DNA from: Desulfobacterales bacterium
GTDB taxonomy: Bacteria > Desulfobacterota > Desulfobacteria > Desulfobacterales > 4be13
NCBI GenBank assembly: GCA_029934695.1
Contig: JAOZLU010000003.1
Location: forward strand, 1-39,334
Direction of reading: 5' to 3'
DNA: 39,334 bases
Made by a program: the position numbers and the translations under genes. Of this stretch, positions 7,079 through 39,334 are shown piece by piece. Positions within the stretch are counted from its first letter, which is position 1; every line of letters begins with the position of its first letter. The notes under the pieces are model-generated. The model saw nothing but the letters and a program-made list of their open reading frames with translations. It had not been told where the DNA came from and ran no database searches.

Positions 7079-7094
7079 GATGTAATCACCTCAT

Positions 7095-8051: not shown

Positions 8052-8087
8052 AGTTTATTCTCCTCTGTAAATACAAATATGTTTAAT

Positions 8088-8174: not shown

Positions 8175-8280
8175 GATGATTTCGTTTATGTGTTTATCAA
8201 GGTGGGTTGCGGGTTTCGTTTTTTACTTCGTAAAAAATCGAAATCCTCCACCCACCCTGCAACCCGGGATTTTTATCTGT

Positions 8281-8323
8281 GGCGGAAGCCCTCGCAACGA
8301 GCGTGAGCATCCGTTATAATCAG
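8281..8323. mobile_element. Partial copy (right end) of the MITE-like 'ATCCGTTATAATCAG' element
   Basis: 'ggcggaagccctcgcaacgagcgtgagcatccgttataatcag' matches the right half of the element at 11751-11887. Confidence 0.6.
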
Positions 8324-8362
8324 AACAATTAATCAGAATAATTAATCGTTAATGAACTGCCT

Positions 8363-11719: not shown

Positions 11720-11750
11720 TATCTTACTCCTCTCTTTGCATCTGTATTTT

Positions 11751-11887
11751 CTGATTATAACGAATGCGGGAGCATGATTCGGGACATTCCCGCTCGTTGC
11801 GGGGCGGGATCCCTGCGACTGTGCGTTGCGAGGCGGAAGCCCTCGCAACGAGTGGACTTGAAGGCTCCCCACATCCGTTATAATCAG
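11751..11887. mobile_element. Complete MITE-like element (~137 bp) with terminal inverted repeats, between the kinase and regulator genes
   Basis: The left end 'ctgattataacgaatgc' (11751-11767) and the right end 'acatccgttataatcag' (11870-11887) are inverted repeats. The interior carries 'ccctgcgactgtgcg' and 'ggcggaagccctcgcaacgagtgg'. Confidence 0.7.
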
Positions 11888-11898
11888 TATATTTAATT

Positions 11899-14951: not shown

Positions 14952-15584
14952 ATGGCGGATTTTAATGCAATGCAGGAGTCTTTAGTTAGCTGTGACAAGG
15001 ATAAACTTGTGGGTCTGGTAAATGCAGCATTGGCAGAAGACATAAGTGCATCAGATATTTTAAACCAGGGATTGATCGCTGGTATGGATATTGTTGGTGA
15101 AAAAATGGAAAACGGTGACATGTTTATTCCCGAAGTACTTATGGCAGCCAAAGCAATGGGTGAATGTGTGATTATTTTAAAGCCACTGCTCGGTGAGGAT
15201 GAGTCTTCAAAAGGTGGTAATGTAGTTATTGGAACTGTCAAAGGTGATCTTCATGACATAGGTAAAAACCTTGTTGCAATGATGATGGAGAGTGCCGGTA
15301 TGACAGTTCATAATGTGGGAGTTGATATTGCACCTGAAGATTTTGTTACTCAGATAAAAGAAAAAAATGCCCGGATTGTCTGCCTGTCAGCTCTTTTGAC
15401 CACTACAATGCCCATGATGAAACAGACTGTTGATGCCATAGTTGAAGCAGGTTTGAGAGATCAGGTTAAAGTTATGGTGGGTGGTGCGCCTGTAACCCAG
15501 GCATTTGCCGATGAGATCGGAGCTGACGGCTTTGCAGCGGATGCAGGTTCTGCTGCCAGATTTGCTAAAACTCTTTTAGCATAA
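14952..15584 (+). CDS. Methyltransferase cognate corrinoid (cobalamin-binding) protein, MttC/MtbC-like
   Basis: The 210-aa protein has an N-terminal helical cap (B12-binding_2) and a B12-binding domain. The latter has the DxHxxG motif 'GDLHDIGKNLV' and the 'SALLTTTM' and 'VMVGGAP' motifs. A GGGAG RBS is present. Confidence 0.85.
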   Translation: MADFNAMQESLVSCDKDKLVGLVNAALAEDISASDILNQGLIAGMDIVGEKMENGDMFIPEVLMAAKAMGECVIILKPLLGEDESSKGGNVVIGTVKGDLHDIGKNLVAMMMESAGMTVHNVGVDIAPEDFVTQIKEKNARIVCLSALLTTTMPMMKQTVDAIVEAGLRDQVKVMVGGAPVTQAFADEIGADGFAADAGSAARFAKTLLA

Positions 15585-25977: not shown

Positions 25978-28900
25978 TCATCCGCCTTCACCCGCCTCTG
26001 CAACCTGAATCCACTCTCCCGGAATCCGGCCATTAATCGTGGCATCATACATTGTTTCAGCCGTGATCATGGGCAGGTAGAACTTGCCCAGATAACTCGC
26101 GTTCAGCAGAATCCGAAAGATTTTTGACTCGCCCTGTCTGATGTCAAAGTAAGTATAAACCCTGTCATCGCGAATATCCTGATAATCATAGTCCGATTCA
26201 GGGCCGAGATCAGGAGCATCAGAATCAGACATATCCATCCGCGTATTGCGGATTTCCCAGCCCGAGGGGAAAACATGAGACAGCGCAACTTCCTCGTAAT
26301 CTCCGCTATGACCGCTGTTCGTCACAGTTACCCGGACCACAAAATCTGTTCCCTGATCCAAGTTCGTGTGATTCAAAGGTTTTCCTTTAAGCGTAAAATA
26401 ATCCGCACTGAGTTTTAAGCCATTTTTCGCCGCGGTTTCAGTTCCCACAGCGGGAATCCCTTCCAGAATGACCCGGGGATAAAGCATTGTATCGCCGGTA
26501 TTCCTGACAACGATGATGCCAGAACTGCTGTCTCCCGCATCCAACTGCATTTGCACAAGAGGATGCTTGGAAGAGACCGCTACTTCCTCGCCGTTATTCC
26601 AGGAAAAAGCAAATTTCATCTCATCCGAGTTTCCTGAGATACCCGCATGGCGGGCCATGGCAACAAGGGCATAAGCCGTAGTCTGGGTACTCAGGGACTT
26701 GGTGCTGCCCAGCTCCGAGGAGATGGCCTTTGCAATGGGCATGGCATCTTCCGGCCGCCCCATGAGGCATAAGGATTCCAGGATCATGGCCTTATCCCGC
26801 AGATCAGAGCCATAAGTGTTTGAAAGCTCACGGTACGCGGATATGGAAATTTTCCTGTCCTGAATCAGGTCTTCAGCCGCTTCCGGCTGTCCAGCCAGAT
26901 GATAGGCCGAGGCAAGTCGCCATCGGGCCGCGGTGGGCAGATTCCGTTCTTCTCTCAGCCGGTTCATGGCCCCGAGTTCCGCGGCCCCGGAAAGTGCCAG
27001 CGTATAGAGACGATATGCCTGAATCAGTTCTGAACGCGTCCGATCCGGGCCCCATGAAATCGCCTTTTTGCGCTGATACGTCTTCCACGCGCTGATCACC
27101 CGCAGGGGGAGCAGATAGCCGGCTTTTTCAGCTTCGAGAAGGAAATGCCCCGCATAATTCGAGACCCAGTCTTGGGCCCTGGTCTCTCCGGGCCAGTAGG
27201 CAAATCCGCCGTCTGTTGTCTGAAATGTCCGCAACCGTCCGATTCCCGCTTTGACATTCTGCTGAATTTTATCCTGCTTATCTGGAGAAAGTTCAAGCAG
27301 TTTGTCCAGATAAAGTTGCGGAAACACGGCCGACGTGGTCTGTTCAACACAGCCATGGGGGTAGCGGATCAGAAAACTGAGCCGTTTCCCCAGATTGAGC
27401 GGCGGAATCCGCGCTGTCTCAAGGGTAATGGCGTTGCTTCCCGTCACACCAGGAAATTTTATCGCCTGCTTCCACATCTCACCTTTGGAAATCGCCGCTT
27501 CCACGACATCCGTAACCAGCCCGCCCGGCATTCTCACGTCGAGTTCAATATGCTGGCCGGCGTTCACATCTCCCGCTGCGGCCTTCACAGAAACCGACGC
27601 TATGCCGATATTCGAGCCTGCTTTAAGTCTGAAGGTGATGACATCATCTCCGGGTTCTGAAAAGGCAATGCTTTTGTGGGAAGAATCTGTGACAGAAACA
27701 GGGCCTTGAGTCTCTATGGTTATTGAGACCTCCTTCACCGTTTCATCCATGGCAAATACAGAAATCGGCATTTCCACTTCCTCATCCGGTCCGAGTACCC
27801 GGGGGAGCGTTGCCAGCACCATGAGCGGTTTACGGACAAACACCGCCTTTCTCTGGGAACCGAATGCTCGGTCCTGTCCCGCGACCACCATGACCCTGAC
27901 CGATCCCACATACTGGGGAATGTCAATGACATGGGTATTCTCCTCATCTTTCCCGAGTTTAAAAGGCCCGATAAATCGCACCATTGGCGGAAAGCGGTGG
28001 GCTTTTTTCTTTCCTTTGTTGATAAGGGCATCATCCCCTCCGATGGCCAGGAGTTGTTCAAGCGCGCCGCTGTAAGCCCCCGCGACCATATCGAAGATAT
28101 CCCATGTTCTCACGCCAAGTGCCTCTTTTTTATAAAAATGGGATCGAGGATCAGGTGTCTTAAAGCGCGTAAGTCCCAAAAGCCCCTCATCCACCACTGC
28201 GACAGTATAGGTCATGGGTTTCCCGTCTGCCTCGCTGATGATAATCTCGGCTTTCTCCTCCGGTATAAACGATTCCGGCACCCCGATCAAGGGCCTCAGG
28301 AGGGTTTCGGGATCATCAATCCTGATCGGAATCACCCCGTACATCCGAATAGGGAGATCGTTTTCTGTCTGCTGGTGGGGCTGGAGAAACGTGACATGCG
28401 CGTACACATTGGGCGACATCGCACTGGTGGCAGGGAATTCATAACGGGTATGTTCCTCGCCGGACGATTCTATCCATGCGGTCTGGATCACCCGTGTCCC
28501 GGACTCAATACTGACCAGCCCCCGGCCCTTTTTCCCGGTCGGAATACTCAGGCTCACTTTTTCGCCGACCTTATACGCGTCCTTGTCCGCGGAAAAACTC
28601 AGCACAGTCGCGCCGTCCGGAGAATCTTTCTGGGCCCGCCCTGCCCATCCGGGCCAGTCAATATAGAAGGCTTTGCCGGTGCAATGATCGCCGTTGGTAT
28701 CACACGCCCGGATCAGATACCGCCCCCATGATGGATATTTGATCTCAAACTGCCATTCACCTTTGCCGTTTATGATCGGAACCTTATCTGTCCGGATAGG
28801 CGTGTGGGAAGATGAACCCACATACTCGGCAAGGGATTCTTTTTCTTTCTCCCACCACCATCGCCATTTGATCTTGTACAATTTTATTTCGGCTTCGCCA

Positions 28901-31548
28901 TTTGTCACAGGTTCTCCGTGATTATCCAGCATCGCAATACTGACTGTGTGAGGTGTATCCGTGAGGAGCATCCCCCGCGCCTTGTCTCCTTTTGGGGTGC
29001 GAATGCCAAGATAGCGTTCATAAGGATAACAGGGTATGCTGAACCGATCCGAACTGAACGCGCCCCCCGGTTCAAACACGCGGGTTTTGAAATTTGCCGT
29101 CAGCATTCCCGGGGACACATTTTGGGGCCAGGCTTCTGATACGACCGTTGCCTTGCCTTTTCCATCCAAATTCCCCTCGAAGATGGTCTGCGTCTCCGGC
29201 TGATATGTCCTGACCGGATCATCAAATATGTATGCCTCATACTTGGGGAAATGGGTCCGGGCTGAGGTGAAGAGCAGCTCGACATCTGATTTCAGCCCTT
29301 TTGCGACAGCTCCGTGGAGCCACGTCGAGGAAAGTTCACCGGTGAGTTTCCCTTCGTACCAGGCATCACTTTCAAAATCAAGACCGATTTTCAGACGGTT
29401 CGGCATGATGGTTTCGATTTTCAGGATTTTCTCAAAGGTCGCACCGCCTGCCCTTACCCGCGCAGTCCAGTTTCCGGTGGGCGCGTCCGGGTCTGTTCCG
29501 GTTTTAAAACTGTAGAATCCGTTAAGCGATTCGTTCTTCTTTATGGTTTTGACAATCTGGTCCCTGGGATTCCGCAGTTCAAACAGAATCGGATGATTTT
29601 TCGGCAGTCTGTTCTCGTTGTCCAGCAGGATAAAGGTGAGATAAATCGGATCACCTGGCCGCCATACCCCGCGTTCACCATAGAGAAATCCCTTCAGCCC
29701 CTTGTCCACAGTATCTCCTGAAACATCAAAGTGACTGACGGACAGTGCTGAGCCGTCATCCAACTTCAGATATCCTGTCTGACCGCCATGTTGTGCCACG
29801 AGCAGAAAGGGCTTTCGCCTGGAGCGGAGAAGAGCCATTCCGCTGCTGTCAGTCGTTCCTGTGTTGAGTAACTGGCGCTGGTAGTCCATGAGGGTGATCA
29901 CCGTGTCCGGCAGGGGTTGAGCCGTTTTTATATCGGTGGCGACAACAGTGACTGAATCATCGCCTCCCTGTTTGGCAATGAGACCGATATCGGAAACGAG
30001 CACATTCCGTGAGACTGAGATGTTATGATCCTCATAAGCCCTGTAGTATCCGGGATGACATGGATTCTCACGCTCATCATAGTATTCCCACCAGTTGTGA
30101 TCTTCGTCCCCATCGTAGGTGTTCCAGTTGCTGTCCTGGGTCTCCTCATCCCAGTTGTTCTCCGCCAAGATTTCCTGTGCGTCCGGTTCTGATCCGTTTT
30201 CAGCATCCGGGCAGGGGTAAACAATATGACGTTGAACAAATGAGAGCTGAAGCCTGAAAAATCCCCCGGGATTATTCTGAACCAGCGGGGAGACATCAAG
30301 TCCGTATCGTGTCCACTGATTTTTCTTCTCCGGCGTGAACCCGAGGGAAACCGTCTTTTTCCAGATCACCCGGCCCACGCGTTTTATTTCATTGTCCTCT
30401 TCAAGGGTGCTGACCTGGAAAAACTGGGGGATGTTTTCCTCATAAACATGCATGGCCTCAACAATGATTTCCCGAAGGTTCACTGTTTCTATGGGAAGGG
30501 TCAGGCCGCGGGTGAAGGGAATAATGACGCGCTCACCCACAAAACGGGCCTGAGGTTTTATGTCTTCAAAACTGACTGTCATGCTTTTTGGTGTGCCAAG
30601 ACGCTGGCCCAGGATATTCCGGATGCCAAGTTCCGCGGTGACTGTCACTTCCTCTGCCCACGGTGACGAGCTGTAAACCCGCACGATACTGCCGTCAATG
30701 GTGAATCTGAGAGGGCGTTCCTCATCACTGACCCGGATCAGACCGTTCAAATCCTGATCTTTCTCCAGAGGATCAGTAAATCGGATTTCAATATACTGCT
30801 GTTCTCCGTGCATGGCCCTGACATCTGTGACTTGGAAGGGGCCGATGGGAGGCACTGCGATATTTCTCTTTCCCTGCTTATTCGCACCAATGGCGGTTCC
30901 GTCCCATCGGAGAATGACTTCGGACGGCTCATCAAGGCGCAGAATATTGCTGATAATGTATGAATGGTTTCGTCTGTCCTTTGAGTGGGACCAGCGGATA
31001 TTCAGCCCTTTCCCATTCTGCCCGGCTCTGAGCAGTTTCATGATCTTCGAGCTGTCCTCCGCGTCTGCAGTGACGAGTTTTCCGGTCAGCTGAACCTCTT
31101 TCAGATTGATCCGGCTGGCTGCCTGAAGTCCGTCAACTGTGATTTCAAAGGATTGCCTGATAACGCCGAATCTGAACTCAAAGGTTTCTGATGCTTGGGG
31201 AAGACTGGTGATTTCTGACCAGTTCAGGAAGGCAAGGTAGTTCTGACCTGCCGGCAGTTTGTCTTTGGGCCAGAACTCAAGCGTTCTTTGGTTCGCCCAT
31301 GCGGCCGCGCCCTTTATCTCCGGCCTGAATGTCAGCGGAGAGTCCTTCAACGGTGCATTGAGCCTGTCCGAGCCGATCATGTTCTCTGCAAACCGGACCT
31401 GAATCATGCTCTCCCGTGAAATCAGGCCCGATGTGTGAGCAGAGATGACGGAAGGCTGTTTTTCAATGTCAAGCGACTCCGCTTTTGAAGCGAAAAGCCC
31501 AAGCATCAGAACGCACATCATTATGACGATAACGGTTTTACTTTTCAT
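25978..31548 (-). CDS. Bacterial alpha-2-macroglobulin family protein (YfhM-like) with an intact thioester motif
   Basis: The protein is 1856 aa with the signal peptide 'VLMLGLFASKAES'. It has repeated macroglobulin-type beta-domains. The thioester site is 'RYPHGCVEQTTSAVFPQ', with the CVEQ codons at plus-strand 27340-27351. An AAGGAG RBS is present. Confidence 0.85.
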   Translation of the reverse strand: MKSKTVIVIMMCVLMLGLFASKAESLDIEKQPSVISAHTSGLISRESMIQVRFAENMIGSDRLNAPLKDSPLTFRPEIKGAAAWANQRTLEFWPKDKLPAGQNYLAFLNWSEITSLPQASETFEFRFGVIRQSFEITVDGLQAASRINLKEVQLTGKLVTADAEDSSKIMKLLRAGQNGKGLNIRWSHSKDRRNHSYIISNILRLDEPSEVILRWDGTAIGANKQGKRNIAVPPIGPFQVTDVRAMHGEQQYIEIRFTDPLEKDQDLNGLIRVSDEERPLRFTIDGSIVRVYSSSPWAEEVTVTAELGIRNILGQRLGTPKSMTVSFEDIKPQARFVGERVIIPFTRGLTLPIETVNLREIIVEAMHVYEENIPQFFQVSTLEEDNEIKRVGRVIWKKTVSLGFTPEKKNQWTRYGLDVSPLVQNNPGGFFRLQLSFVQRHIVYPCPDAENGSEPDAQEILAENNWDEETQDSNWNTYDGDEDHNWWEYYDERENPCHPGYYRAYEDHNISVSRNVLVSDIGLIAKQGGDDSVTVVATDIKTAQPLPDTVITLMDYQRQLLNTGTTDSSGMALLRSRRKPFLLVAQHGGQTGYLKLDDGSALSVSHFDVSGDTVDKGLKGFLYGERGVWRPGDPIYLTFILLDNENRLPKNHPILFELRNPRDQIVKTIKKNESLNGFYSFKTGTDPDAPTGNWTARVRAGGATFEKILKIETIMPNRLKIGLDFESDAWYEGKLTGELSSTWLHGAVAKGLKSDVELLFTSARTHFPKYEAYIFDDPVRTYQPETQTIFEGNLDGKGKATVVSEAWPQNVSPGMLTANFKTRVFEPGGAFSSDRFSIPCYPYERYLGIRTPKGDKARGMLLTDTPHTVSIAMLDNHGEPVTNGEAEIKLYKIKWRWWWEKEKESLAEYVGSSSHTPIRTDKVPIINGKGEWQFEIKYPSWGRYLIRACDTNGDHCTGKAFYIDWPGWAGRAQKDSPDGATVLSFSADKDAYKVGEKVSLSIPTGKKGRGLVSIESGTRVIQTAWIESSGEEHTRYEFPATSAMSPNVYAHVTFLQPHQQTENDLPIRMYGVIPIRIDDPETLLRPLIGVPESFIPEEKAEIIISEADGKPMTYTVAVVDEGLLGLTRFKTPDPRSHFYKKEALGVRTWDIFDMVAGAYSGALEQLLAIGGDDALINKGKKKAHRFPPMVRFIGPFKLGKDEENTHVIDIPQYVGSVRVMVVAGQDRAFGSQRKAVFVRKPLMVLATLPRVLGPDEEVEMPISVFAMDETVKEVSITIETQGPVSVTDSSHKSIAFSEPGDDVITFRLKAGSNIGIASVSVKAAAGDVNAGQHIELDVRMPGGLVTDVVEAAISKGEMWKQAIKFPGVTGSNAITLETARIPPLNLGKRLSFLIRYPHGCVEQTTSAVFPQLYLDKLLELSPDKQDKIQQNVKAGIGRLRTFQTTDGGFAYWPGETRAQDWVSNYAGHFLLEAEKAGYLLPLRVISAWKTYQRKKAISWGPDRTRSELIQAYRLYTLALSGAAELGAMNRLREERNLPTAARWRLASAYHLAGQPEAAEDLIQDRKISISAYRELSNTYGSDLRDKAMILESLCLMGRPEDAMPIAKAISSELGSTKSLSTQTTAYALVAMARHAGISGNSDEMKFAFSWNNGEEVAVSSKHPLVQMQLDAGDSSSGIIVVRNTGDTMLYPRVILEGIPAVGTETAAKNGLKLSADYFTLKGKPLNHTNLDQGTDFVVRVTVTNSGHSGDYEEVALSHVFPSGWEIRNTRMDMSDSDAPDLGPESDYDYQDIRDDRVYTYFDIRQGESKIFRILLNASYLGKFYLPMITAETMYDATINGRIPGEWIQVAEAGEGG

Positions 31549-31620
31549 AATTCTTTACTCCTTTCTGTTGTGATGGTTTATTTGATGGCTCATTACCGGA
31601 ATGACTGTTTGCAGGAATCT

Positions 31621-31645
31621 CGTGACGAGGCTCTGCCTCGTCACG
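31621..31645. repeat. GC-rich hairpin between the channel gene and the A2M gene
   Basis: 'cgtgacgaggc tct gcctcgtcacg' forms an 11-bp perfect stem. No U-tract follows on the coding strand. Confidence 0.6.
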
Positions 31646-31654
31646 GCGGGTGAG

Positions 31655-33856
31655 CTAACTTATGTAAATATATACAAATATCATGCTTGCTAAAACAATG
31701 CAGGGATGAATAATTATCCCTGCACGATTAAAAAACCTTTCTTTTTTTCCAGCCCCTTTTCTGTAAAAAATATAAACAGATATGGATATTGAAGCAGCAA
31801 GGATGGCCAGTATATATATTGTAAAAAAAGCATATTCAATGACGCATAAATATTTCGTCGGGAATTCTGACAAAAACATCATACGATAAGACACAGTTGA
31901 GATGAGTACCGCCATAAAGATCATTGCACGAAAGCCGAAACGGTCCGGCGGAATAAAGTATATGACATACAAAGTGATTATCATTATGATGACAGGCAAA
32001 AAATTTTTGAAAACAAAACTCAGCCCTTTCCTCTCAATCCGGACGGCAGCATTGATCCGGGAATAACTTATAGCGTCTTGTGAATCAGAAAGGAGCGGAT
32101 CTCCGAGACTGGTATCAAGGATAATATCCTGATAAAGCGAGGCATCTCTGACAGACCAGCCAGTAGCGGCATCAAGCCGTATTTTTTTTGCAACCCCAAC
32201 ACCCGACACCTCTGTAACCAAAATCAGTTTGTCTCTGGTCAGCCTGGAATGACGAAGTTCAATTTTCAGGACATGCTGATCAAACGGATACATCCGGAGA
32301 TCAGGATCATTTCTGAAGTCAGCAGTGACATGATATACACGGGCGGTGATATTGCCTCTTTTTGTATCCGAGATGGGCTGACCCAGTGTTACCGGCTTCA
32401 CAGCATTCAGAAACGTAATCTCCCTGTCATCAAAATCCCCTTCATAAAAGAACCAGAGATAAAAATCCAAGGTGCAGACTGAGTTTCTCACATTTAAATT
32501 TCTTATTTCATTAATACGTATCCCCACATAAATCACACGGGTTTTACGCATCGCCTGTCCGTCAATCTCTATGAGTTCACCGGACAGCAACTCCTTCAGG
32601 GGATTGTCAATGGTGCTGATGTTTGTCAGATGGTATTGCGAAAATAAGGGACGGAGGTTCTCATTTTCATAAATTCCTATGGCGGGCGGTCTGGGGGCAT
32701 CTCCGTTTTTATCGAAATAAATGGCTCCGGTCACGCCTCTGACAGCACTTTCATAGTCATAAAAAGTTGTCAGGGCTTCCCGGACTTTTCTCCGAGCCTC
32801 CCGTATGTTTTCTCTCCCCTCAGTTTCAGCATTTTTGATGGCTTCAACCGCAACATAGGCAGCATCATAAGCGCATGCGGCAGTCAATGAGGGTTCTTCT
32901 CCATATTCCTTTAAAAATTTCTGTCTGAATGTGTAGGCTTTTTCATTACCGATATCCGCAAGAAACGGAGAAGCCGCATAAATGCCGTCTGAAAGATAAC
33001 TGACATATCCCCCTTCTGGAGAATATTCTCTGAGATTGTTCAAAAATGATCCGCCTGAGAGTGAAGTGGCTCCAATGACAGAATAAGCTTTATTCCGATA
33101 TTTTATTGATATGATAATTTTTGCAGCTTCAGGGCTGTATGTTGATGTTGCAAAAAAGAGTATTCCCGGATCTTCCGTGGCTTTCAGTTCTTCTGCAATT
33201 CGTGCGAGCTGCTCTTCCGAATCTCTGCCCCCTGCTGCGTCAATACTCCATTTCTTTATAATTCTGATACCCAGCTTCCGGGCGGCCTTTTCAAAAGCTC
33301 CGGCAAGGGAAAGACCATAGGCGTTATTGACGAATATGATGCTTGCCGAGGTCTTTTTTAAAATTTTGCTGATATAATTTGCGACAAAATCCGCATAAAG
33401 GGCGTTATTGGGAACCGTTCTGAAATACCACTCATTCCCTGATGTGACAGGTCCGGTCGTGGCATACGGGGTAATGGCAGGTATGCCGGTCCTTTTATAA
33501 ACCTTTCCCGCATCAATGGAGACAGTGCTTCTGTAATGCCCAATGACAAGCAGAATCTTCTCCTCTTCCGCAACTTGGTACGCCACTTCCATAGCGGTGC
33601 GTTTGTCATTTTTATCGTCGTAAGTCAGCAGTTTTATTTTCCTGCCCCTGATACCGCCCTCTTTATTTATTTCATCAAGGCACATAAGAATCCCTTTCAC
33701 ACCGTCTTCTCCGCTTATCTTGTCAGTGCCGCTCATCGGTCCCATCAGGGCGATATGGATCGTATCTTTGTCAGAAAAAGATATCGAAAAGAACAGGAGA
33801 ATAAGAATCAGACCTGTCGCAAGGATTGCCAGAGATGTCAACAAGATTTTTTTCAT
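31655..33856 (-). CDS. Fusion protein: N-terminal anchor/signal, LIVBP-type (type I) periplasmic binding domain, and pentameric ligand-gated ion channel (pLGIC/Cys-loop family) with extracellular and 4-TM pore domains. Paralogue B.
   Basis: The PBP1 part has 'IHIALMGPMSGTDKISGEDGVKG...INKEGGIRGRKIKLLTYDDKNDKRTA...LLVIGHYRSTVS...GIPAITPYAT...WYFRTVPNN'. The pLGIC part is colinear with GLIC as I recall it. 'VIYVGIRINEIRNLNVRNSVCTLDFYLWFFY' corresponds to beta1-beta2. The Pro-loop 'LRMYPFDQHVLKIELRHS' compares with GLIC 'FRRYPFDSQTLHIYL'. Pre-M1/M1 is 'RIERKGLSFVFKNFLPVIIMIITLYVIYFIPP', M2 is 'RAMIFMAVLISTVSYRMMFLSEFP', M3 is 'YLCVIEYAFFTIYILAILAAS' and M4 is 'IIIHPCIVLASMIFVYIYI'. The stop codon is TAG. 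Confidence 0.8.
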   Translation of the reverse strand: MKKILLTSLAILATGLILILLFFSISFSDKDTIHIALMGPMSGTDKISGEDGVKGILMCLDEINKEGGIRGRKIKLLTYDDKNDKRTAMEVAYQVAEEEKILLVIGHYRSTVSIDAGKVYKRTGIPAITPYATTGPVTSGNEWYFRTVPNNALYADFVANYISKILKKTSASIIFVNNAYGLSLAGAFEKAARKLGIRIIKKWSIDAAGGRDSEEQLARIAEELKATEDPGILFFATSTYSPEAAKIIISIKYRNKAYSVIGATSLSGGSFLNNLREYSPEGGYVSYLSDGIYAASPFLADIGNEKAYTFRQKFLKEYGEEPSLTAACAYDAAYVAVEAIKNAETEGRENIREARRKVREALTTFYDYESAVRGVTGAIYFDKNGDAPRPPAIGIYENENLRPLFSQYHLTNISTIDNPLKELLSGELIEIDGQAMRKTRVIYVGIRINEIRNLNVRNSVCTLDFYLWFFYEGDFDDREITFLNAVKPVTLGQPISDTKRGNITARVYHVTADFRNDPDLRMYPFDQHVLKIELRHSRLTRDKLILVTEVSGVGVAKKIRLDAATGWSVRDASLYQDIILDTSLGDPLLSDSQDAISYSRINAAVRIERKGLSFVFKNFLPVIIMIITLYVIYFIPPDRFGFRAMIFMAVLISTVSYRMMFLSEFPTKYLCVIEYAFFTIYILAILAASISISVYIFYRKGAGKKERFFNRAGIIIHPCIVLASMIFVYIYIS

Positions 33857-33877
33857 AATGACGAATTAATGATGAAT

Positions 33878-33947
33878 TGATTATAACGGATTTAGAGGAG
33901 GCCACGGTCCCTGAGCTTGCCGGTCCCTGAGCTTGTCGAAGGGGGTG
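33878..33947. repeat. Intergenic repeat patch: one MITE-type end plus a tandem 'ggtccctgagcttg' motif
   Basis: 'ttgattataacggattt' (33878-33894) resembles the MITE TIR. It is followed by 'ggtccctgagcttgccggtccctgagcttgtcgaaggg'. Confidence 0.5.
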
Positions 33948-36143
33948 CTATGACATGCAGAGATACATAATTCCCAAGCCTCCTCCTGAAACAACAAAAG
34001 GATAGACAATCCTCGCTGACCACTCAATAAGCCTTACTTTTTTAAAGTCGCCCTTCCTGTAAAGAAGATAGCCTGATACGGATGTAAACAGTGCTATGAC
34101 AGCCAGTATATAGACAGCAAAAAAGGCATATTCGATGACGCATAAATATTCCAGAGGCAATTTTGATGCAAACATTATATGACAATATGCATTTGCGATG
34201 AATACCGCCATAAAGATCGTTACACGAAAGCCGAACCGGTCCGGCCGGATAAAATATATGGCATACAGAACAATTATCATTATGATGACAGGCAAAAAAT
34301 TTCTGAAAGCAAAATTCAGCCCTTTTCTCTCAATCCGGATGGCAGCATTGATCCGGGAATAACTCATCGTATCTTGTAAACCAGAAACCCCGAGCCCCGT
34401 ATTGCTGATGATATCCTGATAAAATGAGGTATCTGTGACAATCCATCCTGTAGCGGCATCAGGCTGTATTGTTACGAGGCTTTTCTTTTCAGCAAGCTCA
34501 GGCGTATTCGACACATCCGTAACAAGAATCAGTTTCTCTCTTGTCAGCCTGGAGTGGCGAAGCTTCACTTTCAGGGTATGCTGCTCAAAGGGATACATCC
34601 GAAAATCAGAATCACTTTTAAAATCAGCGGTAACCCGATATACACGGGTGACAACATTATTTCTCTTTATATCCGAGATGGGCTGACCCAGTGTTATCGG
34701 TTTCACAGCATTTACAAAAATAATCTCCCTACCATCAAAATCTCCTTTGTAGCGGAACCAGAGATAAAAGTCCAAGGTGGCTACAGAATTTTTCACATTT
34801 AAATTTTTTATTTCATTAATATCCATCCCCACATTTATCACACGGGTTTTACGCATTGCCTGTCCGTCAATCTCTATGAGTTCTCCAGCCAGCGATTCCT
34901 CCAGGAGATTATCAATACCTCTGATGTCCGTCAGATGATATTGTGAGAATAGCGGATGGAGTGTCTGATTTTCATAGATTCCCATGGCGGGCGGTCTGAT
35001 GACATCTCCATTTGCATTAAAATAAATGGAGCCAGTCACACCTTTGACAGCATTTTCATAGTCATAAAAACTTGTCAGGGCTCTCCTGACTTTTCTCCTA
35101 TCCTCCCGTATATGCCCTCTTCCCTCAGTTCCAGCTTTTTTAATGGCTTCAACCGCAACATAAGCGGCATCATAAGCGCAGACAGCAGTTACTGAAGGTT
35201 CTTCTCCATATTTTTCTAAAAATTTCTGCCTGAATTTATATGTTTTTTCATTACCGATATCCGCGAGAAAGGGAGAAGCTGCATAAATGGGGACTGAAAG
35301 ATTTTCTTCCAGTGAATATTTTTTGAGATTTTCTGAAAACGCTGTGCCTGAGAGCGAATTTCCGATGACAGGATAATTTATATCCCAATGTTCCAATGTT
35401 GCAATAATTTCTGCAGATTCATAGCTGTACGTTGCCAAAAAGAGTATTCCGACATCTTCCGTTTCTTTCAGTTCTTGTACAATTCGTATGATCTGCTCTT
35501 CCGAATCCCTATCCTTTATTGTTGCGTCAACACCCCATTTCTTTATAATTCTTACACCCAGTTTCCGGGAGGTCTTTTCAAAATTCCCGGCAAGGGGAAT
35601 CCCGTAGTCGTCATTGACGAATATGATGCCTGCCGAGGTCTTTTTTAAAACTTCGCTGCTATAGTTTGCGATAAAATGTGCATAAAGGGCATTATTGGGA
35701 ACGGTTCTGAAATACCACTCATTCCCTGATGTGACGGATTCTGCCGTGGCAAGTGAAGTAATGGCAGGTATGCCGGCCTTCTTATAAATTTTTCCCGCAT
35801 CAATGGATATAGTGCTGTAATAATGCCCGATGACAAGCAACATCTTGCCCTCTTCCGCAACTTGGTGCGCCGCTTTCACGGCGGCGCGTTTGTCGCTCTT
35901 ATCGTCGTAAGTCAGCAGTTTTATTTTCCTGCCCCTGATACCGCCCGCCTTATTTATTTCATCAAGGCACATAAGAATCCCTTCCACACATTCCTCTCCG
36001 CTTAACTTGTTAGGGCCGCTCATCGGGCCCATCATGGCGATATGGATCGCATCTTTGTCAGACGAGGATATCGGGAAGAACAGGAAAATAAAAATCAGAC
36101 CTGTTGCAAGGATTCCCACGGATATTAACAATATTTTTTTCAT
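33948..36143 (-). CDS. PBP1 (LIVBP-type) - pLGIC fusion protein, paralogue A
   Basis: The architecture and motifs match 31655-33856: 'IHIAMMGPMSGPNKLSGEECVEG', 'FRMYPFEQHTLKVKLRHS' and 'RIERKGLNFAFRNFLPVIIMIIVLYAIYFIRP'. M2 has diverged ('RVTIFMAVFIANAYCHIMFASKLP'). I place the start at the ATG at 36141-36143 (MKKILLISVG), by analogy with the paralogue. The ORF extends to 36179. The stop codon is TAG. Confidence 0.8.
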   Translation of the reverse strand: MKKILLISVGILATGLIFIFLFFPISSSDKDAIHIAMMGPMSGPNKLSGEECVEGILMCLDEINKAGGIRGRKIKLLTYDDKSDKRAAVKAAHQVAEEGKMLLVIGHYYSTISIDAGKIYKKAGIPAITSLATAESVTSGNEWYFRTVPNNALYAHFIANYSSEVLKKTSAGIIFVNDDYGIPLAGNFEKTSRKLGVRIIKKWGVDATIKDRDSEEQIIRIVQELKETEDVGILFLATYSYESAEIIATLEHWDINYPVIGNSLSGTAFSENLKKYSLEENLSVPIYAASPFLADIGNEKTYKFRQKFLEKYGEEPSVTAVCAYDAAYVAVEAIKKAGTEGRGHIREDRRKVRRALTSFYDYENAVKGVTGSIYFNANGDVIRPPAMGIYENQTLHPLFSQYHLTDIRGIDNLLEESLAGELIEIDGQAMRKTRVINVGMDINEIKNLNVKNSVATLDFYLWFRYKGDFDGREIIFVNAVKPITLGQPISDIKRNNVVTRVYRVTADFKSDSDFRMYPFEQHTLKVKLRHSRLTREKLILVTDVSNTPELAEKKSLVTIQPDAATGWIVTDTSFYQDIISNTGLGVSGLQDTMSYSRINAAIRIERKGLNFAFRNFLPVIIMIIVLYAIYFIRPDRFGFRVTIFMAVFIANAYCHIMFASKLPLEYLCVIEYAFFAVYILAVIALFTSVSGYLLYRKGDFKKVRLIEWSARIVYPFVVSGGGLGIMYLCMS

Positions 36144-36208
36144 AATGATGAATGATACCCGATTCAGGAAAATGTACATTCCGGGTATTTTATTTTTTTT
36201 GAAATCCC

Positions 36209-39058
36209 TTATTCTGCAAGCCGCCAGTTATGAATATGCTGGCCTCCCATCGCCATGTCGTACCATTCTTTTACCCGGGGCTTTACCAGGCAAGGGGAAG
36301 TTTCAAAATAAATCGGCACAACCACGGCCTCTTCTTCGATCAGAATCTTTTCCGCACGTTTATAGAGTTTCTTCCGTTCCCCTGGGTCCGTGATTTCCCG
36401 AGCCCTGTCTGTCAACTGGGCAAAAATCACATTTTTCCACCCACTTCTGTTGGGAGAAAAATAAGGATGAAAAAGTTTGTAAAGCCAGTTGTCTGCGTCA
36501 GGATAGTCACCGCACTGTTCATATTGGAATATATGAGACATATTCCCCTGGGCAATAAATTTCTCATAGTCAGTTTTTTCTTTTCCATCAAGTTTGACGG
36601 AGATATTCAAATAATGTTTTAAAAAGGTCTGAAACGCTTGGGCAATTTCTGAACGGGCTTCGGATATCTCATACATGAAGGTAATCTCCGGGAATTTCTC
36701 ACCATCAGGATAGCCAGCTTCTGCCAGCCATTTTTTCGCCTGATCAGGATCAAAATTTATGCCCATACCTTCACGGGGAGCGACTGAACCGAAAGCAGGA
36801 GGAGGCGTAAACGTTGTCGCAGGTCTGCCGTATCCTTTCAGTGCTGTTCTGACGAGAAGTTCACGATCAATGGCCGCTGAAATGGCTTTCCGGACAAGCA
36901 GATTATCAACAGGCGGATGCCCGGTATCAAAGGCATAAGCATAAGTGCAGAGTTTCGGAGTGTCTGAATATTCCCTGCTTAACATTGGTTCTGTTTTGAC
37001 ACGGGGAAGTTCTGCCGACGGAAGCGGGAGATAAGCACCTCCCATTATATCCAGTTCGTTATCCTCATACATTGCCAGCCCCACAGAACTTTTCTGTATG
37101 ATATGATAGCGCACCTCTCGGACAGAGATTTTTTCAGCGTCGAAATAACTTGGATTTCTCCGTAGGATCATCCGTCTGTTCTTATCCCAGACAACCAGCA
37201 CATAAGGGCCGTTGGTCTGAATATATTCGGGGTCGGTCCATTTTTCTCCGTATTTTTTGACGAGCTTTTGCGGCAGAGGATAATAAACTGGCAAACCGGC
37301 CATGACAGGAAAATAGGCGACAGGATGTTCAAGCGTAAATTCCACAGTAAAATCATCAGTCGCATGCACACCGAGCAGTTCCAAGGCATCCTCTGTTTGA
37401 AAGGTTTTCATTGTTTTCTCAGCAGTCGGTTCTTTGACAGCATCAATCGTTTCTTCAGTTTCAGCTATCACTTGGGCAATATCTTCGGGTGCCAGTGTTT
37501 CGGTTTGTAAAATTTCTTTTATTTTACCAGTATGTATTGCCTCGGCATTCTTCAGAATGTACAACAGGTCGGCGCGGGGAGATTTTGTCTCCGGGCTGAT
37601 ATTGCGCCGGATGGCCCATACAACATCGTGGGCAGTTACTGGCGAACCATCCGTCCAAACCACATCTTTCCGCAGTTGAAACTGGTAAATCCTGCCGTCT
37701 TCATCAACAGTCCATTTTTCTGCCAGTTCGGGCACCGCTTCATACGTTTTGGGATCAAGATTGGTCAGCCCCAGAAAAAGCTGGCCGACGACCTCAACAG
37801 CATTCCTGTCCAGAGCCAAACCAGGATCAATTGCAGGGATATCTTTCACAGGAAGCCTTAACGTAACGCTTTCTATGAGATCAAACCGGTCTTCCTCCTT
37901 TTTCAAGTGAGCTTCCAGAAATTCAAAGTCTCCGCCTTGCATCTCTTTAAAATGAATTGATTGCCCGATAACATCGCCGTTGGTGTCAAACGAGTAATGT
38001 CCGGGAATCCCGTGCCAGTTCTCAAGGGAGCGCAATACAGTGCTTACGTTGATCGGCACAGAGGAGCCGCTTTTCTCTATGGCATGAGCCAACACCCGGA
38101 TAGCGTCATAAGCCAAGGCTGACGATGCATCAGCAGAAACTCCGAATTCTGCTTTAAAATTTCTGATAAACTTCTGGGTGCGGCCGCTGGATCTTCTCGG
38201 ATCAAAAACAGTGGAAACGATGGTTCCGTCAGCAGCTTTTCCTGCAATAACAGAAAGTTGCGGTGAATCAAGACTGTCGCCTCCCAATATCGGACTGGTT
38301 ACGCCCATGGCTCGCAGTTGTCTGACAATATCACCGGCAGAGGGAAGCTTTCCCCCTAAAAATACAGCATCAAAATCATATTTTTTGACCACATCCGACA
38401 GGAGGAGCGGGATATCATCCTGCCAATCAAAATATGACTTCACGGCAACAATCTCAAGCCCCAGATCATCAGCGCTTTTTGCAAAGATTTCCGCCAGTCG
38501 TCTGCCCGGGGAGTCCCTGTCATAAAGGACCAGTATTTTGTGATATTCTTTGTGATATGCAAACTTGGCCAGTTCCCGTCCGCTTTTCTCACTGGAGGAA
38601 ATATTTCTGAAGGTGAAGATGCCGCCGTACTGCGTCAACGCGGGGTCCATGGCACCCGGGGAAATAAAAATTATCCCATTTCTCTCATAAGTGATGGATG
38701 CGGGAATTGCAGTCTTCCCGTGAAGATGACCCACCACAGCAACCACATCAGGATTTTTAGCCAACTTTTCTGATATCTCCAGCGCTTTTGCAGGTAATCC
38801 TTCGTCATCGTAAAAAATGGGGCTGAGTTTTCTTCCCTGAACACCTCTCTCCTGATTCAATTCTTGTATCGCCATCCTCACGCCTTCAAAAAAAAGGCCC
38901 GGCAAATCAGAGGAGGCAACGATTCCGATAACAATATCTCCTTTTGATTCATCCGAGTCTGCGGCCATTTTCGCCCGTTCAGATACCGGATCGGATTCGC
39001 AGGACAAAACAAACAATACGGAGATGAACAGGATAAAATATTTCTTCAGGGTTTGCAT
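36209..39058 (-). CDS. Lipoprotein fusing a LIVBP-type (type I) binding domain to a family-5 (OppA/DppA-like) solute-binding domain
   Basis: The lipobox is 'ISVLFVLS-C-ESD'. The PBP1 part has 'IVIGIVASSD...INQERGVQGRKLSPIFYDDEG...VVAVVGHLHGKTAIPAS...GIIFISPGA...FTFRN'. The SBP5 part has 'DPGLALDRNAVEVVGQLFLGLTNLD...LAEKWTVDEDGRIYQFQLRKDVVWTDGSPVTAHDVVWA'. I place the start at the ATG at 39056-39058 (MQTLKKYF). A GTG at 39091 is the alternative. Confidence 0.75.
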   Translation of the reverse strand: MQTLKKYFILFISVLFVLSCESDPVSERAKMAADSDESKGDIVIGIVASSDLPGLFFEGVRMAIQELNQERGVQGRKLSPIFYDDEGLPAKALEISEKLAKNPDVVAVVGHLHGKTAIPASITYERNGIIFISPGAMDPALTQYGGIFTFRNISSSEKSGRELAKFAYHKEYHKILVLYDRDSPGRRLAEIFAKSADDLGLEIVAVKSYFDWQDDIPLLLSDVVKKYDFDAVFLGGKLPSAGDIVRQLRAMGVTSPILGGDSLDSPQLSVIAGKAADGTIVSTVFDPRRSSGRTQKFIRNFKAEFGVSADASSALAYDAIRVLAHAIEKSGSSVPINVSTVLRSLENWHGIPGHYSFDTNGDVIGQSIHFKEMQGGDFEFLEAHLKKEEDRFDLIESVTLRLPVKDIPAIDPGLALDRNAVEVVGQLFLGLTNLDPKTYEAVPELAEKWTVDEDGRIYQFQLRKDVVWTDGSPVTAHDVVWAIRRNISPETKSPRADLLYILKNAEAIHTGKIKEILQTETLAPEDIAQVIAETEETIDAVKEPTAEKTMKTFQTEDALELLGVHATDDFTVEFTLEHPVAYFPVMAGLPVYYPLPQKLVKKYGEKWTDPEYIQTNGPYVLVVWDKNRRMILRRNPSYFDAEKISVREVRYHIIQKSSVGLAMYEDNELDIMGGAYLPLPSAELPRVKTEPMLSREYSDTPKLCTYAYAFDTGHPPVDNLLVRKAISAAIDRELLVRTALKGYGRPATTFTPPPAFGSVAPREGMGINFDPDQAKKWLAEAGYPDGEKFPEITFMYEISEARSEIAQAFQTFLKHYLNISVKLDGKEKTDYEKFIAQGNMSHIFQYEQCGDYPDADNWLYKLFHPYFSPNRSGWKNVIFAQLTDRAREITDPGERKKLYKRAEKILIEEEAVVVPIYFETSPCLVKPRVKEWYDMAMGGQHIHNWRLAE

Positions 39059-39152
39059 AATTTTGGGGTTGTCAGAGTATTGAATAAGCACGTTATTTTT
39101 TCTCCGGACTCTCCGGATTCTGTCGGACGGAGTTTGCCCTGCCGGACCCTGC

Positions 39153-39334
39153 CGGACGGGGTTTGCAACCCCGTCCGCAATGTTTTGTCAATCCCGGCAA
39201 CAAATGTTTCGGACGGGTTGCAAACCCCGTCCGGCAAAGCCGACAAGTGCCCCGTCCGGCAAGTGAAAAATGTTTCGGACGGGGTTGCAAACCCCGTCTG
39301 GCAAGTGAAAAATGTTTCGGACGGGGTTGCAAAC
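39153..39334. repeat. Array of palindromic repeats. The last copies form an exact 42-bp tandem repeat that runs off the window.
   Basis: There are four stem-loops of the form cggacgggg-ttgcaaa-ccccgtccg, at 39153-39177, 39210-39233, 39276-39300 and 39318 onward. The unit 'ggcaagtgaaaaatgtttcggacggggttgcaaaccccgtct' runs from 39258 to 39299 and repeats from 39300. Confidence 0.85.

Follow-up and report, generated by a model that had tools for sequence, protein, structure and literature searches.

What does a lipoprotein that joins two different solute-binding folds do beside two ion-channel genes? The question arises at one end of the window, by which we mean the whole 39,334-nt stretch of Desulfobacterales DNA analysed here. 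From the letters alone, the first-pass annotation had suggested that such a lipoprotein heads a channel operon and forms a three-component sensing system with its products. The gene and its parts are as follows.

36209..39091, minus strand: PBP1f-SBP5 fusion lipoprotein, whole ORF (960 aa from the GTG at 39091; 949 aa from the ATG at 39058)
38999..39058, minus strand: lipoprotein signal peptide MQTLKKYFILFISVLFVLS-C, read off the sequence, with the lipobox Cys codon at 38999-39001
37907..38941, minus strand: type-I LivK-like binding domain (PBP1f), aa 51-395; Pfam Peripla_BP_6 and ANF_receptor, pLDDT about 90
37868..37906, minus strand: flexible inter-domain linker LKKEEDRFDLIES; AF2 pLDDT <50 at model residues 385-393
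36212..37867, minus strand: family-5 (cluster C) OppA/MppA-like domain, aa 409-960; Pfam SBP_bac_5, 3tcf, 4toz
37370..37519, minus strand: acidic disordered insert, aa 525-574, lineage-specific; core ETEETIDAVKEPTAEK, aa 544-559, at 37415-37462

Translation from the ATG at 39058 yields MQTLKKYFILFISVLFVLSC, the lipoprotein signal peptide of the fusion protein, in which a K-rich n-region and a hydrophobic core are followed by an FVLS-C lipobox. The lipobox Cys is kept in at least 33 of the 38 fusion family members examined, and the +2 residue after it, Glu in the window protein, is D/E in roughly half the family members. The two-lobe type-I fold of PBP1f is complete: Peripla_BP_6 (PF13458) matches aa 69-375 (E 1.6e-36, 127 bits versus a cut-off of 31.7), and PDB matches include 4mlc (E 2.5e-60) and LivK 1usg (E 3e-35). 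The three-lobed cluster-C fold of the other half is likewise complete. SBP_bac_5 (PF00496) matches aa 452-877 (E 2e-82, 277.7 bits versus 32.4), E. coli OppA (3tcf) matches at E 2.3e-62, and Foldseek places the AF2 model of this half on open MppA (4toz) with a TM score of 0.90-0.91 and an rmsd of 2.4-2.6 A. The AlphaFold2 model has a mean pLDDT of 87, with both halves confident (the C-terminal one over aa 400-950), and a pTM of 0.66, the relative placement of the two domains being without confidence. The acidic insert is disordered (pLDDT <50 at model residues 516-552) and, in alignment A1, only the window protein and its closest relatives carry one. The earlier description of the protein therefore holds throughout, the lipobox and complete LIVBP-like domain being borne out by sequence, Pfam and the AF2 model, and the linker and complete SBP_bac_5 domain with its acidic insert by Pfam, AF2 and Foldseek.

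Two trivial origins were considered and rejected. An assembly chimera or frameshift artefact is ruled out by the same protein in several samples and by homologues in a closed genome. Specifically, an identical fusion protein lies on five contigs, at least four of them from separate samples, and the closed Desulfonema magnum chromosome carries two homologues (P0017 and P0021, with gene context taken from a scan of genome contigs); among the loci examined, the fusion gene is split at L032 only. Nor is PBP1f a recent duplicate of the channel N-terminal domain: the two PBP1 domains are just 25% identical, and PBP1f has the strong match to stand-alone 4mlc given above.

Downstream of the fusion gene lie two channel genes.

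33948..36179, minus strand: PBP1-pLGIC channel gene 1, probable start Met13 at 36143
31655..33856, minus strand: PBP1-pLGIC channel gene 2, product 69% identical to that of gene 1

As the first reading of the locus had it, they follow closely on the same strand, with a gap of 29 nt from the fusion gene to channel gene 1 (65 nt from the Met13 start) and of 91 nt between the channel genes. Both proteins combine a Peripla_BP_6 domain with a pLGIC-type C-terminal half. Neither has a Pfam match to Neur_chan, and the NCBIfam LGIC_1 match is weak (E 1e-4). A profile of 31 channel C-terminal halves matches GLIC at E 7e-17 from the Pro-loop to M4, and these halves contain a YPFDxQ Pro-loop, a DFYLWFR motif and M1-M4. 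Judged by sequence, the two downstream products are genuine pLGIC homologues. Among such channels, two ancient paralogue clades hold a fixed gene order.

We surveyed the neighbourhoods of 38 homologous fusion genes at 37 loci in other genomes, sampled from the lipoprotein side only. The fusion family comprises 54 clusters at 39-60% identity, with about 30 full-length fusion representatives in an exhaustive 50% identity library. Most members come from Desulfobacterales, with sporadic occurrences in Spirochaetota, Bacteroidota, Moduliflexus and Electrothrix, and a genome can hold up to three paralogous clusters. A PBP1-pLGIC gene lies directly downstream of the fusion gene in 29 of 35 cases, and an SPFH/Band_7 gene directly upstream in 33 of 35, where stop and start often overlap. 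OppB/C-like (Opp-type) permeases are found within 10 kb at none of the 37 loci; non-exporter ABC ATPases, used as a proxy for LivHMGF-type importers, occur in the flanks of only 4/37, none of them adjacent. Recurrent nearby are DUF697 genes (21/37 loci), a gene for a 64-aa membrane protein and cyclic-peptide-export ABC genes (the TIGR01194 exporter at 16/37). A lack of neighbourhood conservation had been set beforehand as the refuting outcome, and both the channel and the permease counts show the neighbourhood to be conserved. In the window, too, no ABC permease or ATPase adjoins the fusion gene, as had been claimed. The alpha-2-macroglobulin gene downstream of the channels (25978-31548) is not conserved at other loci.

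The claim that the fusion gene heads the operon did not survive. In the source genome, same-strand SPFH, DUF697 and other genes precede it just past the window end (three DUF697 genes lie upstream, outside the window), so it is not the head of the cluster. Two features mark this junction within the window.

39093..39119, minus strand: 27-nt copy of the SPFH gene 3′ end including the stop (AATCCGGAGAGTCCGGAGAAAAAATAA), marking a former tight SPFH-lipoprotein junction
39120..39334, no strand assigned: palindromic repeat array (CGGACGGGGTTTGCAACCCCGTCCG), the window part of about 380 nt, running on past the window end

The 27-nt SPFH 3′ end is a perfect direct duplication (L080, 9566-9592 and 9973-9999), and the palindromic array is an insertion that, in the source genome, parts the SPFH gene from the lipoprotein gene; the transcription unit there is uncertain. 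A promoter and terminator scan of 31400-39334 gave counts near shuffle expectation, with no terminator between the three genes, a result uninformative as to co-transcription. Band_7 (PF01145) is matched by two orthologues of the upstream SPFH protein (E 5e-25 and 1e-24), and the window genome's own SPFH gene has a precomputed PF01145 match. The upstream SPFH proteins carry 4.4 K/R before versus 0.8 after their single TM (34/36 cases). From this positive-inside bias we predict an N-in topology with a periplasmic, HflK/C-like SPFH domain, which would share its compartment with the lipoprotein and the channel heads. Of the three-component sensing system, then, the partnership of binding protein and channel is supported by synteny; the component count is not, because SPFH, often translationally coupled, is an even more constant neighbour than the channel.

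The two halves of the fusion also occur apart. At 21 loci, mostly in Thiotrichales, a stand-alone OppA-like SBP5 gene immediately precedes a PBP1-pLGIC gene, and 19 of these 21 loci are without SPFH. At L060 and L068 the gene order is SBP5, channel, SPFH and stand-alone PBP1f, the L060 channel also bearing an N-terminal DUF697 domain; at L084, SBP5 is fused to an MscS channel and adjoins a PBP1-pLGIC gene. Stand-alone channel-linked SBP5 proteins are usually lipoproteins. This form marks the channel-linked SBP5, whereas the next-closest relatives (43-50% identity) are transporter-linked, soluble OppA proteins with ordinary signal peptides, encoded in oppABCDF operons. The SBP5 tree is an unrooted NJ tree that leaves out the window's own OppA-like protein, which did not pass the coverage filter; we infer the direction from Opp to channel linkage by parsimony only. 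Since the partnership with channels is kept when SBP5 stands alone or is fused to MscS, and SPFH adjacency is kept when PBP1f stands alone, we infer that the OppA-like half is the module working with the channel and the LivK-like half the module linked to the SPFH protein. Taken together, the comparative evidence of synteny across several phyla, module fusion and fission, and the absence of Opp-type permease genes nearby strongly supports a predicted functional partnership of the double binding-protein lipoprotein with PBP-pLGIC channels, not with an ABC importer.

We think it probable, if far from certain, that the fusion is a periplasmic, lipid-anchored non-transport protein, serving as an accessory sensor/adaptor subunit of a PBP1-pLGIC receptor-channel complex. 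Going by the half-by-half partnerships, the fused lipoprotein would bridge a periplasmic SPFH scaffold and the channel. It could modulate channel gating, whether by docking or by closing around a ligand that resembles a peptide or an amino acid; the actions of DppA on Tap and of LuxP on LuxQ are precedents. Type-I domains pair in class-C GPCRs and NMDA receptors, and the LivK-like half may similarly pair with the channel's own PBP1 domain.

How far ligand binding enters into this is a question for the pocket residues. The amino-acid backbone-binding residues of LivK are both replaced in the window protein (Ser79 by Gly, Thr102 by Met), as are OppA Arg413 and Trp416 (both by Gln); the OppA Asp419 equivalent is kept (CGDYPDA). 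The fusion clade keeps OppA R413 in 20/38, W416 in 16/38 and D419 in 28/38 members, compared with 13/13 for the Opp-operon relatives, and equivalents of LivK Tyr202 and Glu226 are not conserved in the fusion family. Because several canonical pocket residues are replaced, the proposal that this lipoprotein captures or presents a ligand is weakened for the window protein, which may be without canonical ligand binding. These four losses, and the relaxed pocket of the fusion clade, would suit a ligand-independent adaptor or scaffold in which both folds are protein-protein modules that tether the pLGIC in an SPFH microdomain or cage. The rank of SPFH as most constant neighbour and its predicted periplasmic, HflK/C-like domain point the same way. 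We nonetheless regard such an adaptor as unlikely, given that the family consensus retains LivK Ser79 (25/28) and Thr/Ser102 (24/28), that the Asp419 equivalent persists in most fusions, the window protein included, and that stand-alone channel-linked SBP5 proteins retain Arg in 22/23 and Trp in 23/23. The several paralogous clusters of some genomes also resemble diversified sensors.

It is very unlikely that the lipoprotein is primarily part of an SPFH-DUF697/EcsC membrane system, to which channels would be frequent but dispensable neighbours. Four loci (L019, L021, L025 and L042) do have DUF697/EcsC neighbours, with SPFH in three of the four, and no adjacent channel, and the frequency of DUF697, including the three genes upstream in the window's genome, fits such a system. 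Against it stand the channel gene directly after most fusion genes and the pairing of SBP5 alone with channels, mostly without SPFH. In L019, moreover, a PBP1c-type ORF begins 9.4 kb downstream of the fusion gene, and the L060 channel carries a fused DUF697 domain of its own, a link between DUF697 and the channel and not a separation of the two. An ordinary binding protein for an ABC importer of peptides and/or branched-chain amino acids, with the transporter encoded elsewhere, is extremely unlikely: the two domains are plainly homologous to OppA and LivK, E. coli MppA, an orphan binding protein, works through OppBCDF, and an Opp-type operon does lie 26 kb away in the window (4625-9946), but that operon is unrelated and owns a binding protein that is only distantly related (E 1e-8), Opp-type permeases are absent from the surveyed loci while the channel and SPFH context is kept across phyla, the transporter-linked relatives are not lipoproteins, and the fusion scores far under the NCBIfam equivalog cut-offs for OppA (231 versus 947 bits, so that orthology to OppA is not supported) and the LivK family (143 versus 477). 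A defence system was also considered and rejected; PADLOC gave no matches for the lipoprotein, channel, SPFH, DUF697 or 234-aa proteins, and generic ATPase matches only for the cyclic-peptide ABC exporter.

An accessory subunit of this kind can be compared with several known systems. Like OppA and MppA of E. coli and Salmonella, and LivK and 4mlc, the fusion has the same folds with clear sequence homology, including the kept Asp419 equivalent. It differs in that the two are fused in one lipoprotein without Opp-type permease genes nearby, in its sub-cut-off equivalog scores and, in the window protein, in the replaced ligand contacts. Eukaryotic ionotropic glutamate receptors also place a type-I LIVBP-like domain before a type-II domain in one polypeptide that serves a ligand-gated channel. 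This likeness is an analogy, not a shown homology of assembly: here the two domains sit on a separate lipoprotein, the PBP-II domain is cluster C (OppA-like) rather than LAOBP-like, and the channel is of the pentameric Cys/Pro-loop type, whereas glutamate receptors are tetrameric. SPFH proteins organise or regulate membrane complexes, as HflK/C does with FtsH and stomatin/MEC-2 with ASIC and DEG/ENaC channels. In common with these organisers, the SPFH gene here is encoded with a membrane channel, and its product resembles HflK/C in having Band_7, one TM at the N terminus and a domain predicted to be periplasmic. However, it matches HflK weakly (E 2.5e-5, 24 bits versus a cut-off of 159), and the cluster holds no FtsH or NfeD partner. 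We know of no accessory lipoprotein for DeCLIC, the only prokaryotic pLGIC bearing an N-terminal domain to have a solved structure (PMC9897478). DeCLIC is likewise a pLGIC of deltaproteobacterial origin in which an additional N-terminal module in the periplasm modulates gating, but that module consists of beta-sandwich lobes and not a PBP fold.

Binding-protein-dependent receptors offer a further parallel. In DppA-Tap, MBP-Tar, AibA-TlpB, CBP-ChiS and LuxP-LuxQ, a binding protein of the periplasm, belonging to SBP_bac_5 in several of these pairs, works on a signalling protein in the membrane, either in place of a transporter or in addition to one (reviewed in PMC8050422). LuxPQ and CBP-ChiS are also syntenic, as are the fusion and channel genes. 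Among the genes studied here, 29/35 fusions and the 21 stand-alone SBP5 genes are genetically linked to a membrane signalling protein, not to a transporter. Unlike in those systems, the fusion is predicted to be lipid-anchored, has two domains and is without a nearby transporter partner, and its proposed target is an ion channel; the targets in the review are chemoreceptors, kinases, GGDEF/EAL proteins and Ser/Thr kinases, and ion channels are never mentioned (PMC8050422).

The general idea of cooperation between PBPs and bacterial pLGICs is not new: it was predicted, PBP-II/pLGIC operons included, by Tasneem, Iyer, Jakobsson and Aravind in 2004 (PMC549065). Their ART-LGIC/pLGIC systems share with ours channels with an N-terminal PBP-I, a PBP-II-superfamily protein in the neighbourhood and a proposed cooperation in small-solute sensing. 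What differs is that the partner is a lipoprotein joining PBP-I to a cluster-C PBP-II, that it adjoins channels already bearing a PBP-I domain, and that SPFH, DUF697, the 64-aa membrane protein and the cyclic-peptide-export ABC are present; that paper mentions neither the lipoprotein fusion nor an association with any of these. Literature searches on pLGIC and solute-binding-protein operons, on ligand-gated channels in Desulfonema, on SPFH proteins together with such channels, and on DUF697 returned nothing relevant, nor did they yield a case of SPFH associated with both a pLGIC and a binding-protein lipoprotein. Neither the fusion nor its link to SPFH appears to have been described before.

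Many of the hosts are large gliding or filamentous multicellular organisms (Desulfonema, Beggiatoaceae, Thiomargarita, Electrothrix, Moduliflexus). It is conceivable, though quite unlikely, that the cluster is an 'ionotropic' sensor of cell-cell or environmental peptides. In this picture, an SPFH cage or raft in the periplasm would keep the two-headed lipoprotein up against PBP1-pLGIC channels, perhaps heteromeric ones, and peptide binding would be turned directly into ion flux. The sensed peptide may be the product of the co-encoded TIGR01194 exporter. Given the lifestyle of these hosts, the cluster could serve rapid electrical signals or behavioural responses that run along filaments. If so, bacteria would have their own counterpart of transmitter release and of a receptor channel with an auxiliary subunit.

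Prokaryotic pLGICs are the ancestors of nicotinic, GABA-A and glycine receptors. To our knowledge, their physiological signals and partners are essentially unknown, and no channel bearing a PBP-type N-terminal domain has yet been characterised. The gene set described here names candidate partners, namely a putatively lipid-anchored double binding protein, a predicted periplasmic SPFH scaffold and DUF697 proteins, and the natural split, fused and MscS-fused variants make the question of partnership testable. If the partnership is confirmed, ion channels would be added to the kinds of signalling protein that solute-binding proteins are known to drive, and there would be a bacterial precedent for auxiliary subunits and for SPFH regulation of ligand-gated channels.

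Gene neighbourhoods across the family suggest that the predicted lipoprotein of the window, in which a LivK-like type-I domain (PBP1f) is joined to an OppA/MppA-like SBP_bac_5 domain (SBP5), is likely to be tied in function to the adjoining PBP1-pLGIC channel genes and to a gene for a Band_7 (SPFH) protein. The features concerned are listed below; L080 is a source-genome contig that carries the identical lipoprotein and extends beyond the window end.

31655–33856, minus strand: second PBP1-pLGIC channel gene
33948–36179, minus strand: first PBP1-pLGIC channel gene
36209–39091, minus strand: ORF of the fusion lipoprotein, 960 aa counted from GTG
38999–39001, minus strand: lipobox Cys codon, from reading of the sequence
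39093–39119: one copy of a perfect 27-nt direct duplication that flanks a repeat array
Up to 39334, continuing outside the window: the repeat array, ~380 nt between the SPFH and fusion genes, built of CGGACGGGGTTTGCAACCCCGTCCG palindromes
L080 9566–9999: array plus duplication
L080 5408–9592, same strand as the fusion gene and upstream of it, beyond the window end: three DUF697 genes, a 64-aa two-TM ORF, a 234-aa protein and a 307-aa Band_7/SPFH gene

Read from an in-frame ATG at 39058, the protein begins with a signal peptide typical of lipoproteins, MQTLKKYFILFISVLFVLS-C, and lipidation is predicted. Residues 69–375 match Peripla_BP_6/ANF_receptor (E 1.6e-36) and residues 452–877 match SBP_bac_5 (E 2e-82), both far over the Pfam gathering scores; the nearest NCBIfam entries, the LivK family for the N-terminal half and OppA and MppA for the C-terminal half, score far under their curated cut-offs. 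An AlphaFold2 model, based on an alignment of 28 family members, has a mean pLDDT of 87 and comprises two globular halves, both confident, with a disordered linker (model residues 385–393) and acidic insert (516–552). The pTM of 0.66 leaves the mutual orientation of the halves undefined. In Foldseek searches with this model, the C-terminal half superposes with unliganded MppA (4toz; TM 0.90–0.91), and no PDB chain spans both halves. In the family alignment, the acidic insert is confined to the window protein and the three or four sequences nearest to it. The first-pass annotation was thus right about the lipobox, the type-I domain and the family-5 domain with its acidic insert.

The same protein is found, identical, on five contigs, four of which (L080–L083) represent four separate samples. 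A word-indexed search returned 54 clusters, almost all from Desulfobacterales, that match across both domains at 39–60% identity; an exhaustive 50%-identity library holds ~30 full-length representatives; and the closed chromosome of Desulfonema magnum encodes two paralogues, whose sole annotation is 'Leucine binding and solute-binding domains-containing protein'. The identical copies and the closed chromosome rule out an artefact, and together with the clusters they indicate that the fusion is a modest, well-established family. To survey its neighbourhoods, we searched a single genome of each GTDB species with the family alignment as query, which gave 79 loci with flanks of up to 10 kb, and labelled ORFs by phmmer, using as queries domains excised from the window and its source contig. 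Counts for the fusion refer to 38 genes at 37 loci, all in genomes other than that of the window and all sampled from the lipoprotein's side. Hosts are mostly Desulfobacterales, joined by a Spirochaetota MAG (L034), a Roseivirgaceae MAG (L036), Moduliflexus (L028) and Electrothrix (L025, L042), and some genomes contain two or three paralogous clusters.

The neighbourhood is conserved, contrary to the outcome that the first-pass annotation named as refuting its idea: a PBP1-pLGIC gene lies directly 3′ of 29 of the 35 fusion genes whose downstream sequence extends for at least 400 nt, and 18 of the 37 loci have a tandem pair. In the window, two same-strand genes come after the fusion gene, as originally annotated, at gaps of 29 and 91 nt; the first gap becomes 65 nt if channel 1 begins at Met13, the start suggested by its 69%-identical paralogue. 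Each product consists of Peripla_BP_6 and a C-terminal half that has no match to the Pfam Neur_chan models. A profile built from 31 such halves matches GLIC (E 7e-17) from the YPFDxQ Pro-loop through M1–M4, which identifies them as genuine pLGICs though Pfam Neur_chan misses them. PBP1f and the PBP1 domain of the channel share just 25% identity, and PBP1f matches the stand-alone binding protein 4mlc with E 2.5e-60, which rules out a recent origin of PBP1f by copying of the channel NTD. In unrooted NJ trees, first and second channel genes (L004–L007, L013, L015, L017, L023, L027, L030, L032, L040, L046) form two separate clades, which suggests an old duplication whose gene order became fixed, and channels that may be heteromeric; the two copies of the window lineage, 69% identical to each other, both fall in the 'second' clade. 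The M2 region of the window channels reads …PDRFGFRVTIF…. By eye, in the GLIC alignment, its cytoplasmic mouth has Gly and a hydrophobic residue before the conserved Arg, and Glu is absent. Glu at this position is typical of cation-selective pLGICs, and the ion selectivity of the window channels may not be cationic.

Upstream, an SPFH gene directly precedes the fusion gene at 33 of 35 loci, and the stop codon of the former often overlaps the start codon of the latter. In the genome of the window the two genes are separated by the repeat array. Since the flanking 27-nt duplication holds the last codons and stop of the SPFH gene, the array is an insertion into a once-tight SPFH-lipoprotein junction; it looks like a REP/MITE-like element with target duplication. 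Gene callers place spurious 135-aa ORFs inside it. The SPFH proteins have a single N-terminal TM helix; the 15 residues that precede it contain 4.4 Lys/Arg on average, against 0.8 behind it (bias in 34 of 36 proteins), which predicts an N-in topology with the domain periplasmic, as in HflK/C. Near the fusion we also find DUF697 (21/37 loci), the 64-aa ORF (18/37) and ~540-aa ABC half-transporters over the cut-off of TIGR01194, 'cyclic peptide export ABC transporter' (16/37, including L005, L007, L008, L020, L023, L024, L029, L032 and L046). These half-transporters number one to three per locus and adjoin the SPFH-lipoprotein-channel genes, often directly 5′. The 234-aa protein of the source contig has a weak secretin-like match, and at L011 an NRPS gene lies 3′ of the fusion gene. 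The first-pass annotation had the lipoprotein heading the operon of a three-component system. The partnership with the channels stands; the lipoprotein does not head the operon, as SPFH, DUF697 and other genes precede it on the same strand past the window end, and the list of components is larger, with SPFH, DUF697, the 64-aa ORF and the exporter.

Split versions of the fusion are also found. At 21 loci, mostly from Beggiatoaceae or Thiotrichales with a few deltaproteobacterial MAGs, a stand-alone SBP5 of ~550 aa, 43–49% identical to the C-terminal half of the window protein, is encoded immediately 5′ of PBP1-pLGIC. Two Thiotrichales loci (L060, L068) have the order SBP5, channel, SPFH, stand-alone PBP1f, the L060 channel having an extra N-terminal DUF697 domain. 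At L084 (425–5553), one protein combines an MscS-type channel with an SBP5 52% identical to that of the window, and the gap to the next gene, a PBP1-pLGIC, is 33 nt. In these fission and fusion variants, SBP5 goes with the channel and PBP1f with SPFH. The next-closest SBP5 proteins (43–50% identity) are members of classical oppABCDF operons and have ordinary cleavable signal peptides; a lipobox is present in nearly all fusions and most channel-linked stand-alone SBP5 proteins. Two chimeras, L001 9876–13274 and L020 2–2140, each consist of PBP1, a pLGIC-like extracellular domain that lacks the YPFD loop, and an MscS-type channel module, the former with a C-terminal cNMP-binding domain too; a pLGIC sensor head appears to have been grafted onto another channel family. 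Searches with the window protein also returned two giant proteins with eight matching stretches each (P0103, 2843 aa; P0116, 2704 aa) and a Ser/Thr kinase-STAND protein with a terminal SBP5 domain (P0065, 1287 aa). The window-type SBP5 lineage is repeatedly incorporated into signalling proteins.

On balance, we favour a model in which the lipoprotein would be an accessory sensor subunit of the channel. Its OppA-like head would work on the channel, by analogy with DppA on Tap or LuxP on LuxQ; the LivK-like head would connect to the SPFH scaffold or pair with the channel's PBP1 domain; and gating would be altered by ligand-induced closure or by docking. We compared the ligand pockets of the two halves with those of E. 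coli OppA and LivK.

Pocket positions: residue in the window protein, then counts in the fusion clade and in comparison sets
OppA Asp419: Asp (CGDYPDA); fusion clade 28/38; stand-alone channel-linked SBP5 17/23; Opp-operon SBP5 13/13
OppA Arg413: Gln; fusion clade 20/38; stand-alone channel-linked 22/23; Opp-operon 13/13
OppA Trp416: Gln; fusion clade 16/38; stand-alone channel-linked 23/23; Opp-operon 13/13
LivK Ser79: Gly; fusion clade 25/28; channel PBP1 domains, Ser 59/66
LivK Thr102: Met; fusion clade, Thr or Ser 24/28; channel PBP1 domains, Thr or Ser 52/66

At the family level, the lobes look like peptide-type and amino-acid-type binders; the D. magnum proteins are examples of orthologues with consensus pockets. 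By these alignments, pocket constraint is relaxed across the fusion clade, and the window protein is an outlier with atypical pockets, which keeps in play an unlikely alternative, that the lipoprotein acts as a ligand-independent adaptor. At four loci (L019, L021, L025, L042) the fusion has no adjoining channel, yet has DUF697/EcsC neighbours and, in three of the four, SPFH. These loci favour the idea that the lipoprotein belongs to an SPFH-DUF697 system that can do without channels, an idea we consider quite improbable. That it is an ordinary importer binding protein is hardly tenable, given that OppB/C-like permeases were labelled within the flanks of up to 10 kb at none of the 37 fusion loci.

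No ABC importer gene adjoins the window fusion gene either, as had been noted at first. The Opp-type operon of the window sits apart (4625–9946, minus strand) and consists of two permeases, a fused double ATPase and its own binding protein, which is only distantly related to the lipoprotein and has a weak, sub-threshold TAT-signal match. It adjoins MttB genes, as well as a sigma-54 response regulator and an SBP_bac_3-GAF histidine kinase (10337–14433, minus strand). One MttB-family methyltransferase gene (1052–2539, minus strand) is broken by a single in-frame TAG at 1556–1558, with Pfam MTTB positions 31–338 before it and 345–497 after, approximately at the pyrrolysine site of MttB. A second paralogue (3157–4605) is uninterrupted, a corrinoid (B12-binding) protein is encoded at 14952–15584, and the window contains no pyl genes. 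The interrupted gene, in a Desulfobacterales-like genome, is a candidate for UAG=Pyl, and the region may be an island for methylated-amine uptake and regulation that has no relation to the lipoprotein.

Fusions of bacterial pLGICs with PBP-I domains were described by Tasneem et al. (2004; PMC549065), who also reported conserved operons with stand-alone PBP-II proteins and proposed cooperation in chemoreception. The fusion system fits this frame; new are the lipoprotein that fuses PBP-I to a cluster-C domain, an SPFH partner that is highly constant, the neighbouring DUF697, 64-aa and ABC-exporter genes, and the variants with MscS. A review from 2021 on the signalling roles of binding proteins covers chemoreceptors, kinases, c-di-GMP enzymes and Ser/Thr kinases, with ion channels absent (PMC8050422), and DeCLIC is the sole NTD-bearing prokaryotic pLGIC with a structure (PMC9897478). 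Our literature searches found no published work on the fusion lipoprotein/SPFH/channel system. The extracellular region of iGluRs has a similar order of PBP-I then PBP-II, as an analogy only. The fusion system is a further form of a known type that is itself purely predicted, and its gene cluster has more components than first seen and offers clear experimental handles.
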